64,000 nucleotides of DNA, taken from sequence record PZ452578.1; one strand, given 5' to 3'. Shown in pieces: positions 20,803 to 23,567 of this stretch (its first letter is position 1; the number at the start of each line of letters is the position of its first letter). This DNA comes from a phage. Under the pieces are notes generated by a model that was given only the letters and a program-made list of their open reading frames with translations, was not told the DNA's origin and searched no databases. The translations under genes and the position numbers were made by a program.

Positions 20803-21002
20803 GATTTATCCCCATAGATGTCTCTCATCAATTTGAGCGCTGAGCGTTCTAATTTCTTTTCTTTCTCAGCACTAATCATTGATTTCATCCATTCTTCCGA
20901 TTCGTTCTGCATTTCTTTATTTGCTTGTTCAACCCAACCATCATCAATGTACATTGAGTTTGGTCTATTGAACCATTCAAGAATCTTCTTGAGAGCTTTC
21001 AT
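20799..21002 (-). CDS. hypothetical protein (67 aa)
   Basis: ORF track. Confidence 0.5.
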
Positions 21003-21474
21003 TTATTTTACCTAAAACAATAGTAGGAGCATCGTCAAATTCATGAATTTTTAGCAATTTTGGATTTAAATTATTCCATACATAATAAATAAAGTATGAT
21101 AAAGCATCTTCACTCGCAATTATAAATTTATTTCCTTCATTTATTTTCCAATCATATACTGAATCATACGAATAAAAAGATAAAGGATTACCATTATATT
21201 GTTCTGCGCTAACATTAATGTATTCGGATTTAGTAAATGCTTCAATTGCTCTAAACGGACTATTTGGCACAGTTTCAATAATTCCGATCTTTTTAAGTTT
21301 TATTTTAACATCTTCTGGAACTGGCATTGAAACGAAATTTTCTACGAGATACATAGGGTTACAATAACCCTTATCAATCACTACGGCTACAGTAATTGGA
21401 ACATCTTTAGCAAACGACATGCTATTACTGCTAATATACATTTCAAACAAAATTGCTTCCATAATTTTCCTCAA
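20977..21474 (-). CDS. hypothetical protein (165 aa)
   Basis: ORF track. Confidence 0.55.
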
Positions 21475-21803
21475 TCACAAGATGTAGATGAACAGCTAGA
21501 ATCACAAGAACTTCCGCATGAATCACCTGCCCATACATGAACAGGGACATTTGTATCATATGAAGAATTAGAACTTTTAACTTCGTTAGAAGATGTAGGT
21601 GTTGACCAGCGCCAGGGATTTTTATAATATTCCTGGGCTTCTTCATAAGTCATAGTAACTGCTTCTACTGTTCCATCTCCCATATAAACATACTCAACTA
21701 CAGTTAAAGGAAGGTAGTCATTTGAAATAGGAACTACACCTTCTCCAGGAGTCGTAGAGAAAAAATCTGTAAAGAAACTTTTAAACCAATTAAAGATAAA
21801 CAT
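21471..21803 (-). CDS. hypothetical protein (110 aa) with Cys/Ser-rich C-terminal tail
   Basis: ORF track; C-terminus [18 protein letters not shown]. Confidence 0.55.
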
Positions 21804-22009
21804 TACAAAAAGCCTCTCTTAAATTCGACTTGCTTCTCGCCATAATCATATCGAATCTCTGCATTAAATTCGACAGAACCATCTGCGTACATCATAAATG
21901 AATGCACAACAACTTCTGTAGACCATGGCTGTAGTTCATATTTCTTCATTACATGTCGTGAAATGATAATATCTAAATCTTCATTTGGTTTAATCCAGCG
22001 ATTTAACAT
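21803..22009 (-). CDS. hypothetical protein (68 aa)
   Basis: ORF track. Confidence 0.55.
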   Translation of the reverse strand: MLNRWIKPNEDLDIIISRHVMKKYELQPWSTEVVVHSFMMYADGSVEFNAEIRYDYGEKQVEFKRGFL

Positions 22010-22035
22010 AGTGCTCTCCTCTATAAGATAATTCT

Positions 22036-22070
22036 ATTATACCATACTCATTTTGGAAAGTAAACCATTT
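22036..22070 (-). promoter_or_regulatory. T4-type early promoter (GTTTAC / TGgTATAAT) immediately after the soc terminator
   Basis: Plus attata 22036-22041, gtaaac 22060-22065. Confidence 0.65.
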
Positions 22071-22071
22071 A

Positions 22072-22102
22072 AATGAAAAAAGGACTCCCGAAGGAGTCCT
22101 TG
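22072..22102 (-). terminator. Intrinsic terminator after soc (CUUCGG hairpin + U-run)
   Basis: aaggactcc-cgaa-ggagtcctt 22080-22101 with A-run 22075-22080 on plus. Confidence 0.7.
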
Positions 22103-22105
22103 AAT

Positions 22106-22351
22106 TTATTCACCAGTTACTTTCCACAAATCTTCATTTGCAGCAATCCATTCAGTACGTTGATTTTCTTCATATACTGTAGAATATGCTGCTTTTTCTG
22201 AAGGGAATGTCTGATAATGAGCACCAGAAATTTTGTGAACGTCAGAATAAAGAGGGAAAGCTACAGAAATTTCCTTTCCTTCAATTTTCTTATTTCCATC
22301 TAATTTCTGCTCAAATGTTTTGATATTAACATAACCGCGAGTACTAGCCAT
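22106..22351 (-). CDS. soc: Soc small outer capsid protein
   Basis: ORF track 81 aa; MASTRGYVNIKTFEQKLDGNKKIEGKEISVAFP matches T4 Soc. Confidence 0.9.
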   Translation of the reverse strand: MASTRGYVNIKTFEQKLDGNKKIEGKEISVAFPLYSDVHKISGAHYQTFPSEKAAYSTVYEENQRTEWIAANEDLWKVTGE

Positions 22352-22367
22352 GTAATTCTCCTTTTAT

Positions 22368-22577
22368 TTAAATTACATGATTATTTATAATAAATTCTCG
22401 CGGAACGTTAAAATACCCAATTTTAGTTAATATAACAATATCGCCGTTAATAATTACCGGAGAATAATCGGCTGGAGCATTAAATTTCCAATGGGCTCTA
22501 ATATTATATCCATCAGAACCAAATGCTCGACTAGCCGGTCTCCCGGCTTTTTGCCATGCATAAAAATCAAATTTCAT
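22368..22577 (-). CDS. hypothetical protein (69 aa)
   Basis: ORF track. Confidence 0.5.
   Translation of the reverse strand: MKFDFYAWQKAGRPASRAFGSDGYNIRAHWKFNAPADYSPVIINGDIVILTKIGYFNVPREFIINNHVI
22382..22389 (-). promoter_or_regulatory. T4 late promoter TATAAATA about 30 nt upstream of soc
   Basis: Reverse complement of 22382-22389 is TATAAATA; soc is a late gene. Confidence 0.55.
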
Positions 22578-22777
22578 TTTGAATGCTCTATAATTAATTT
22601 TAAGGCTTCTTCACGCACCAACTTGTCTAATGGTATATGCCCAGTTTTAATTGTGTAAGCTTTGTGGAGCTGATTAGATAAGAGCTCGTATGTGAGCTCT
22701 TTGTCATAATCTTTAAATAGCTGGTCAATACGTTTCTTGCGGGCTTTCTTAAGCTGGCGTTTATTTAAACGAGCCAT
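22574..22777 (-). CDS. hypothetical protein (67 aa)
   Basis: ORF track. Confidence 0.55.
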   Translation of the reverse strand: MARLNKRQLKKARKKRIDQLFKDYDKELTYELLSNQLHKAYTIKTGHIPLDKLVREEALKLIIEHSK

Positions 22778-23295
22778 TAATATCCTCTGTCTTGACGAGC
22801 GAAGTTTTCAGCATTTTTCAGATAATAAAGTTTAAATATTTCTTCAGCTGACATTCCAAGAGCAATGAATTTATTCATGAAAAAGTGAAATTGATCAATC
22901 AGTTCAAATTTAATTTCAAGTTGATCTTCAGGAGATAAATCTTGAATTTTCTTGGATTGCATTTCAGAATAACGTTTCTTCCAAGGTTTCCATACAGCAG
23001 AAGCTTCTTTTTCACCATTACTCATACCACCAAGAGAAGTATATAGCTCGCGAGTTTCGTCTGCGATATAATCGTCTTGGTTTCGCAACCAAGCAAGAAC
23101 TTCTCCTGCAGTTTCAAGTGAATCGGGATGACGATTTGTTTCTGGTTTATCATTAGCCAAACGAATCTGTAAATGCCGCTGCATGTCAAGCATAACCTGC
23201 AGTGGGTCAATATTGTGCATAATATTCTCAGCATATGCACGATTTGCTTTATCAACACCTTCGATCAAATGAGCGCATTCATTAAAGTAAGCCAT
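22777..23295 (-). CDS. 56: gp56 dCTPase/dUTPase
   Basis: ORF track ORF; internal start MAYFNECAHLIEGVD gives ~172 aa; C-terminus KLYYLKNAENFARQDRGY recalled from T4 gp56. Confidence 0.8.
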   Translation of the reverse strand: MAYFNECAHLIEGVDKANRAYAENIMHNIDPLQVMLDMQRHLQIRLANDKPETNRHPDSLETAGEVLAWLRNQDDYIADETRELYTSLGGMSNGEKEASAVWKPWKKRYSEMQSKKIQDLSPEDQLEIKFELIDQFHFFMNKFIALGMSAEEIFKLYYLKNAENFARQDRGY

Positions 23296-23366
23296 TATTT
23301 TTCCTTTCAATTCGTGGGTTAGTAGATTAATTATACAATAAATATATAAAGCAATAAGGAGGACAT

Positions 23367-23567
23367 ATGGTACAAAAATTAATGGCACTTGTTAATGCCA
23401 TCAAAGGTAATAAAAAACGTATAGCTTTTACTATTTCTGCTATGGTAGGAATTTTACTCTGGAACTTTATTTTATCACCTGTTGCAATTGCACATGGTAT
23501 TAATATTCCAGTAGTTACTCTTGATACATTTGTAGATTTAGCATTTGCTTTAGTTGGGTTAATTTAA
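23367..23567 (+). CDS. small membrane protein (66 aa), plus strand
   Basis: ORF track; AAGGAGG 4 nt upstream of ATG; two hydrophobic segments. Confidence 0.5.
   Translation: MVQKLMALVNAIKGNKKRIAFTISAMVGILLWNFILSPVAIAHGINIPVVTLDTFVDLAFALVGLI

Follow-up and report, generated by a model that had tools for sequence, protein, structure and literature searches.

The mrh.1 gene and its surroundings

The DNA analysed here, referred to as the window, is a stretch of 64,000 nucleotides (nt) from a phage (sequence record PZ452578.1), and our subject is a small early gene within it, mrh.1, whose protein product carries a Cys- and Ser-rich C-terminal tail. A first-pass annotation, made from the letters of the sequence, had drawn attention to an open reading frame (ORF) of 110 amino acids (aa) at this locus; the ORF listing of the window bears out that frame, with an ATG start and a stop codon, and places it on the minus strand (Table 1). 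The identity of the ORF as mrh.1 (DUF7206), an early gene of a T6-like Tequatrovirus, is essentially certain. The protein scores 92.7 bits (E 2.7e-26) against Pfam DUF7206 (PF23836), for which the gathering cut-off is 25.6 bits, with residues 3–110 aligned to profile positions 1–107 of 107, and it matches phrog_2031 (E 1.1e-35), a family that PHROGs labels as function unknown. It is 100% identical to the Mrh.1 protein of phage T6, and the surrounding segment (window 20900–22400) shares 97.9% nucleotide identity with T6 and matches 505 phage records. Mrh.1 of T4 (UniProt P20706) is ∼89% identical over residues 1–92, the low-complexity tail being masked in that search, and differs mainly in a linker that is three residues longer. 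As the DUF7206 score lies above the cut-off and the gene lengths of 330, 333, 339 and 342 nt preserve the reading frame in all cases, the ORF is coding.

In both T6 and T4 the ORF is annotated as mrh.1, ‘hypothetical protein’, and the T4 transcript is classed as early (PMC9697503 supplement). The remark in the first-pass annotation that the tail is unusual for T4 early proteins is thus misleading, as mrh.1 is a standard and long-annotated T-even early gene; the gene and the DUF7206 family are already catalogued, the window copy is the T6 copy, and no new kind of element is present. The gene belongs to an early operon, mrh.2-mrh.1-mrh-srh, that is located between soc and modA/modB, the order along the minus strand being soc, terminator, promoter, mrh.2, mrh.1, mrh, srh, modA.4 to modA.2 and modB.

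Table 1. Regions of the mrh.1 product and features flanking the gene, in window coordinates.
Feature	Position	Strand	Basis or remark
mrh.1 coding sequence, 110 aa + stop	21471..21803	minus	DUF7206, phrog_2031, identical to T6
Residues 1–15, aromatic amphipathic helix (consensus M-I-x-W-L-K-x-L-F)	21759..21803	minus	AlphaFold2 (AF2) helix 3/4–14/15
Residues 19–26, PGEGVVPI motif	21726..21749	minus	family alignments
Residues 34–52, beta-hairpin, most conserved block	21648..21704	minus	AF2 strands 34–40 and 46–52
Residues 53–90, short helix then hypervariable Ser/Thr/Asn-rich disordered linker with in-frame indels	21534..21647	minus	
Residues 91–110, tail: x-G-D-S then S-C-D units	21474..21533	minus	C100 and C109-D110-COOH kept family-wide
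mrh.2, 68 aa, upstream, translationally coupled	21803..22009	minus	stop/start overlap TAATG at 21803
Sigma-70 early-type promoter, TTTACT-17-TG-n-TATAAT	22036..22064	minus	10/12 matches + extended -10; predicted
Intrinsic terminator (predicted) after soc, start of mrh.2-mrh.1 unit	22080..22101	minus	
mrh, downstream gene	20977..21462	minus	ATG at 21462
soc	22106–22351	minus	

Architecture of Mrh.1 and conservation of its tail

A direct sequence search returned close relatives and one protein at 60% identity. The family was gathered by an exhaustive HMMER search of 1.84 billion representatives and then by a profile search of a 5.8-billion-protein collection, and the profile searches gave ∼150 relatives, all with PF23836. 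The HMMER search yielded 21 matches, the full-length ones being family members and those that are not full length (P0005, P0006 and P0008–P0010) being truncated or frameshifted copies and one chimera; two weak matches (P0013 and P0023) were discarded as spurious repeat proteins. All of the named relatives are from T4-like phages (Tevenvirinae) of Enterobacterales, with hosts in the genera Escherichia, Shigella, Salmonella, Klebsiella, Enterobacter, Citrobacter, Serratia, Erwinia, Cronobacter, Kosakonia and Yersinia.

Alignment of the family together with AF2 modelling indicates that Mrh.1 is a modular and mostly disordered protein, in which a helix, the PGEGVVPI motif, a GDG hairpin, a variable spacer and the C-terminal tail follow one another. 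The N-terminus is aromatic or hydrophobic at 9 of its 15 residues, follows the family-wide pattern M-[IF]-x-W-[LI]-K-x-L-F and is predicted to form an amphipathic helix, with a hydrophobic moment of 0.48–0.78 across family members. The second motif has the family-wide form PG[EQ]G[MV][VI]P[IV] and is separated in some members by an acidic insert from the hairpin block, [RK]E[YW][VI]Y[MV]GDGMMEEV, in which E37, Y40, G42, G44 and E47 are invariant and D43 nearly so, and for which AF2 gives a beta-hairpin and then a short helix. The linker beyond is hypervariable and rich in indels and in Ser, Thr, Asn and Arg, and is often followed by a short hydrophobic stretch and [WY]-x-G-[DS]-S before the tail. 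The mean predicted local distance difference test score (pLDDT) of the AF2 models was 48.8 with 4 sequences and 60.1 with 68 sequences; with 68 sequences, values of 77–85 were reached by the hairpin and short helix only, and the tail remained below 50.

The tail of the window protein has four cysteines, at residues 96, 100, 104 and 109, in the C-x3-C-x3-C-x4-C arrangement that the first-pass annotation had described, and its last 18 residues comprise 8 Ser, 4 Cys, 3 Asp, 2 Gly and 1 Thr; the Ser-rich tail and the hydrophobic N-terminus of that description are confirmed as well. From composition alone (1.6% Cys in the window ORFs), the probability of at least four Cys in a given 18-mer is 1.7e-4; this is not overwhelming on its own, and the case against chance therefore rests on conservation. 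Leaving aside short out-of-frame reading frames, no comparable tail was found among the other ORFs of the window, nor was a comparable N-terminal motif found elsewhere in it, and a search of the window for paralogues of either the tail or the N-terminal motif found none.

Conservation of the tail is pronounced. The mean fraction of the commonest residue is 0.82 in the hairpin, 0.67 in the tail, 0.60 in the PGEGVVPI motif, 0.45 in the N-terminal helix and 0.31 in the linker, which makes the tail the second most conserved region of the family, behind the GDG hairpin; the comparison with homologues that the first-pass annotation had called for thus came out in favour of a conserved tail. The protein ends in Cys-Asp in 117 of 120 family proteins, the others being two that end in Cys-Asn and one truncated fragment; a Mosigvirus member ends in Cys-Glu. 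C109 is invariant, and C100 and D110 are nearly invariant. Nearly all of the cysteines in the family (249/256) fall within the last 25 residues, and 221 of these 249 stand in an S-C-D context. The pooled tails consist of Ser (43%), Asp (17%), Gly (16%), Cys (10%) and Tyr (8%), and contain no Glu, Lys, Arg, Gln, Leu or Met, Glu amounting to 7.9% of the rest of the proteins. Upstream of S-C-D there are usually one or two S-Y-D-S-G units, so that Tyr shares the S-x-D-S context with Cys.

What is conserved is not, however, the four-Cys spacing, which the first-pass annotation had treated as the unit to follow. Exactly two Cys are present in the whole protein in 109 of 120 members, corresponding to C100 and C109 of the window protein, whereas C96 and C104 are confined to Tequatrovirus (the T4/T6 genus) and are replaced by Gly, Ser or Tyr in relatives. 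The final two cysteines are separated by a Gly/Ser-rich spacer of 4–10 residues, its length having modes at 6 and 8. Judged from these alignments, the family signature is a pair of S-C-D units 4–10 residues apart, the last of which forms the C-terminus, and C-x3-C-x3-C-x4-C is a lineage-specific elaboration of this two-Cys motif.

Constraint on the tail is also apparent among close relatives. Across 14 Tequatrovirus genes, the last 17 residues (G93–D110, window numbering) are unchanged in spite of synonymous changes at five codons, and the only replacement in the W91–D110 stretch is A/T at residue 92; the linker of the same genes has both replacements and in-frame indels of 3–9 nt. Between genera the codons switch (TGT/TGC, GAT/GAC, TCN/AGY), yet S-C-D is retained. 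A downstream Shine-Dalgarno sequence or an overlapping gene was considered as the cause of the terminal Cys-Asp and ruled out, as this pair persists across differing downstream genes; since neither the gene that follows nor its ribosome-binding site is constant across genera, a nucleic-acid constraint cannot explain the tail peptide.

These observations bear directly on the simplest account of the tail, namely that it is low-complexity filler or an acidic spacer in which the cysteines have no specific role. The Ser/Asp-rich, disordered composition would suit such a role, as would the dispensability of mrh.1 (PMC6070864) and the occasional frameshifted copies of the gene. We nevertheless regard filler as the least credible explanation of all, as the adjoining upstream linker varies freely and the tail does not, Cys is nearly absent elsewhere in the family (7/256), and the S-C-D context and terminal Cys-Asp are kept across genera despite codon turnover.

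Candidate roles of the tail

The tail offers ligand-type chemistry, in that thiols are combined with a dicarboxylate at a free C-terminus and Tyr and Cys occupy the shared S-x-D-S context in different lineages. Our favoured interpretation, to which we assign a probability of only about 0.35, is that the tail acts as a flexible arm, perhaps kept at the membrane, that chelates metal through thiolates and carboxylates. In this inferred mechanism, a metal ion (Zn or Fe) would be chelated by the thiolates of the two Cys together with the carboxylates of the adjacent Asp residues and of the free C-terminus, either within one chain or between two chains of a dimer, and Tyr phenolates could serve as additional ligands in some lineages. 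The N-terminal helix may hold the arm near the inner membrane, from where the arm would engage a host target at an early stage of infection; in the T4/T6 genus, the arm would have been strengthened by two extra Cys at positions where relatives have Tyr or Gly. The idea that Tyr and Cys together supply a constant four ligands in the tail was rejected, as inspection of the sequences gives sums ranging from 2 to 5. Because two Cys are the norm and the spacer is variable, a fixed intrachain Cys4 site is disfavoured.

Peripheral tethering through the N-terminal helix is plausible, given that the WLKxLF core resembles the membrane-targeting sequence of Escherichia coli MinD and that the hydrophobic moment is in the range given above. 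The MinD sequence is KGFLKRLFGG (PMC5471200), and the predicted helix of Mrh.1 is like it in being short, amphipathic, located at one end of the protein and built round an aromatic-L-K-x-L-F core (WLKNLF/WFKSFF in Mrh.1, FLKRLF in MinD). The helix is C-terminal in MinD but N-terminal in Mrh.1, and such helices can also bind proteins, lipid-binding and protein-binding ones not being separable by sequence.

We rank metal chelation as the most economical reading, above a redox arm and then a docking motif, although a number of points weigh against it. Searches of Pfam, NCBIfam, PDB profiles and Foldseek gave no match to a metal-binding family. In contrast to classical Zn or Fe-S motifs, the conserved cysteines number only two and stand at a variable distance from each other, and the tail contains no His. 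Free Zn in the cytoplasm is tightly buffered, and a disordered Cys2/Asp site would have modest affinity. The suggested association of Mrh.1 with the membrane derives from sequence resemblance only. In the time-resolved proteome of T4, Mrh.1 has no class and is entered as ‘NA’, whereas the mrh.2, mrh and srh proteins were detected (PMC9697503 supplement). Failure to detect Mrh.1 is, however, expected and little informative, because its only tryptic sites are K8, K61 and R65, which leaves peptides of 45–53 residues. The gene also lies within the T4 delta-12 region (map units 16,280 to 3,778), which is dispensable in the laboratory (PMC6070864). Finally, frd.2 was the sole function-unknown T4 gene that scored as important for fitness in a genome-wide CRISPRi-ART knock-down screen (PMC11879866), from which, as the text of the paper does not name mrh.1, we infer that mrh.1 did not score.

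Comparison with characterised proteins gave no sequence relative: the Pfam match is to a domain of unknown function (DUF), the PHROGs family is one of unknown function and NCBIfam gave none. The profile search against PDB returned only a chance match to a capsid protein (E 0.38), and Foldseek against PDB gave no match with E <1 (best E 1.6); the top Foldseek matches, which include fragments of ribonucleotide reductase, have probabilities ≤0.3, are meaningless and were not used. The T4/T6 tail, with 4 Cys in 14 residues amid Ser, Gly and Asp, recalls metallothionein-like stretches. Metallothionein was nevertheless rejected, as was a Cys4 zinc finger or ribbon: 109 of 120 members have two Cys, the 4–10 residue spacing is variable, Cys makes up a tenth of the pooled tail, and neither CxxC nor CxC occurs.

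The closest likeness in design is to the C-terminal tail of R1, the class Ia ribonucleotide reductase subunit, and this raises the alternative that the two tail Cys form a reversible dithiol/disulfide on a flexible acidic C-terminus. Mrh.1 would then either sense redox state or engage thiol oxidoreductases of the host or the phage, as a pseudo-substrate, decoy or adaptor. Like the R1 tail, that of Mrh.1 is flexible, acidic, disordered and built of small residues, with a Cys pair within its last ∼10 residues; the E. coli R1 protein NrdA ends in DDGCESGACKI-COOH, a peptide that has been crystallised bound to glutaredoxin (PDB 1qfn), and T4 NrdA ends in ADDCAACKL-COOH. The R1 tail is reduced by thioredoxin or glutaredoxin and is an established substrate of the latter. 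Moreover, a spacer of 4–10 residues fits closure of a disulfide loop better than it fits a rigid metal site. The likeness is one of composition only, without homology: the spacing is C-x2/x4-C in R1 and C-x4-10-C in Mrh.1, and R1 ends in Lys and a hydrophobic residue (K-I or K-L) rather than in Asp. In R1 the tail works for a catalytic domain of its own protein, whereas Mrh.1, with only a helix, hairpin and disordered linker, offers its arm no such domain; nor does a redox role account for the strict S-C-D context or for the interchange of Tyr and Cys, and no oxidant or partner was found in the gene neighbourhoods examined. A redox arm is the main rival to chelation, but we hold it to be doubtful.

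The invariable position of S-C-D at a free C-terminus is typical of C-terminal recognition motifs, and the modular, disordered build of Mrh.1, with several short conserved motifs, is likewise in keeping with a docking motif or active-site plug, in which ...S-C-D-COOH would be read by a pocket on a host protein. One example would be a ‘cysteine switch’, in which the thiol would cap the zinc in the active site of a membrane metalloprotease, for instance FtsH; the amphipathic N-terminal helix would bring the protein close to the membrane, and the outcome, jointly with mrh and srh, would bear on sigma-32 control. Phage lambda CIII inhibits FtsH through an amphipathic helix. The reading is attractive because late transcription is affected by the neighbouring genes mrh and srh when cells are heat-shocked or carry rpoH mutations (PMC6070864). 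The name mrh.1 is positional only, however; the Winklervirus and Karamvirus loci retain mrh.1 without a recognisable srh, and a purely C-terminal motif does not explain the internal second S-C-D or the SYDSG units. On balance we consider docking unlikely. A broader proposition, which we rate lower again, is that Mrh.1 represents an unrecognised class of early effector, membrane-tethered and disordered, whose S-C-D-COOH end would capture or transfer metal or plug a metal centre or thiol of the host; a membrane zinc protease that controls sigma-32 could be an example of its target, acted on jointly with mrh and srh. If true, this would provide T4-like phages with a thiol-based route to rewire host metal or stress homeostasis.

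The first-pass annotation had also suggested a modified peptide tail, which we considered in terms of ribosomally synthesized and post-translationally modified peptides (RiPPs). Here the Cys/Ser-rich tail would be the substrate of an enzyme carrying out heterocyclisation, thioether formation or another covalent modification, with the conserved N-terminal part as leader or recognition region. A conserved N-terminal part, a variable spacer and a Cys/Ser/Asp-rich end do give Mrh.1 a superficial resemblance to RiPP precursors, and the tail is hard to reach by tryptic proteomics, such that a modification could go unseen. The gene neighbourhoods lend this no support: the neighbours in all loci are small ORFs (mrh.2, mrh, srh, modA.2-4), soc and ADP-ribosyltransferases, and as no modifying enzyme is found in the conserved neighbourhoods examined, be it a cyclodehydratase, radical-SAM enzyme, lanthionine synthetase or other maturase, a RiPP precursor was rejected. 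Family members of 96–194 aa are much longer than is usual for a precursor and have no cleavage motif, the gene sits in the early operon of a phage that is lytic and completes its cycle quickly, and Pfam, NCBIfam and PHROG gave no match to a precursor family. Covalent modification of the tail is accordingly very improbable. Metal chelation by the tail remains the interpretation that we prefer.

Gene order, variant copies and significance

The order soc, terminator, (mrh.2-like), mrh.1, mrh/srh and modA/B is kept in eight Tevenvirinae genera (Tequatrovirus, Dhakavirus, Gaprivervirus, Mosigvirus, Karamvirus, Moonvirus, Winklervirus and Marfavirus). The same-strand position of mrh.1 between soc and mrh/modA-modB is found in T6, T4, Bp7, CC31, Merlin, Marfa, CHI14, VR7, APCEc01, DK-13 and Vettismorki, and in one metagenomic contig. 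Upstream of mrh.1, Mrh.2 is kept at 55–85% identity in the E. coli-infecting genera. CC31, Merlin and Marfa have a second family of small ORFs, mutually related and starting with W-[IRM]-K-P (L010:2220-2498, L011:2265-2504 and L012:2095-2334), which are possibly distant relatives of Mrh.2; no mrh.2-like small ORF was seen upstream of mrh.1 in Winklervirus.

At the other end of the gene, the Shine-Dalgarno sequence of mrh, GAGG (window 21469–21472), overlaps the mrh.1 stop codon, the T4/T6 genes themselves being without overlap. The mrh ORF can be extended to a TTG at 21474 (20977–21474), which would overlap the mrh.1 stop, but the ATG at 21462, preceded by GAGG, is more likely to be the start. 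In Merlin, Marfa and Vettismorki, the annotated downstream gene begins 45–55 nt inside the end of mrh.1 that codes for the tail (L011:2880-2932, L012:2841-2896 and L018:1760-1803).

Several copies of mrh.1 depart from the standard form. A 164-aa protein of Escherichia phage 235Ecol030PP (P0003, representing a cluster of 17) has a T4-type N-terminus and a four-Cys tail, but in place of the linker that goes with them it has one of ∼50 residues of the Dhakavirus/Gaprivervirus type (QPEKAGNVG...LPLNSKKLKEHL...AVSSW), a mosaic that suggests recombination between genera within mrh.1. Frameshifted or truncated copies occur in some assemblies (P0005, P0006 and L008:2095-2368), one of which reads into the alternative frame that is seen at window 21443–21646; sequencing errors could account for these, as could the occasional decay of a dispensable gene into a pseudogene. 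A 150-aa protein from a 647-nt ENA contig (P0008) has an unrelated N-terminal sequence of 111 residues joined to the first ∼30 residues of Mrh.1, and probably arose by misassembly or from T4 sequence contaminating an unrelated data set.

On the far side of soc, the interval up to gene 61 (primase), at window 22368–23567, is arranged as in T6 and includes gene 56. Small ORFs of the soc.1/soc.2 type lie on the minus strand at 22368–22577 and 22574–22777, and a dam.1-like ORF lies on the plus strand at 23367–23567; segF and dam, both of which are present in this interval of T4, were not found there in the window.

Even in T4, which has been studied more than any other lytic phage, dozens of early genes, mrh.1 included, are still without a function, and a literature search found no functional account of Mrh.1/DUF7206 and no discussion of the tail signature. 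What is added here is that signature, in which an amphipathic N-terminus and a GDG hairpin are combined with two S-C-D units and an obligatory Cys-Asp at the C-terminus, and its retention across eight or more genera of T4-like phages of Enterobacterales. Should the tail bind metal, cycle between redox states or dock onto a host enzyme, it would constitute a new tactic of host takeover, and its function might help to clarify the poorly understood mrh/srh heat-shock module.

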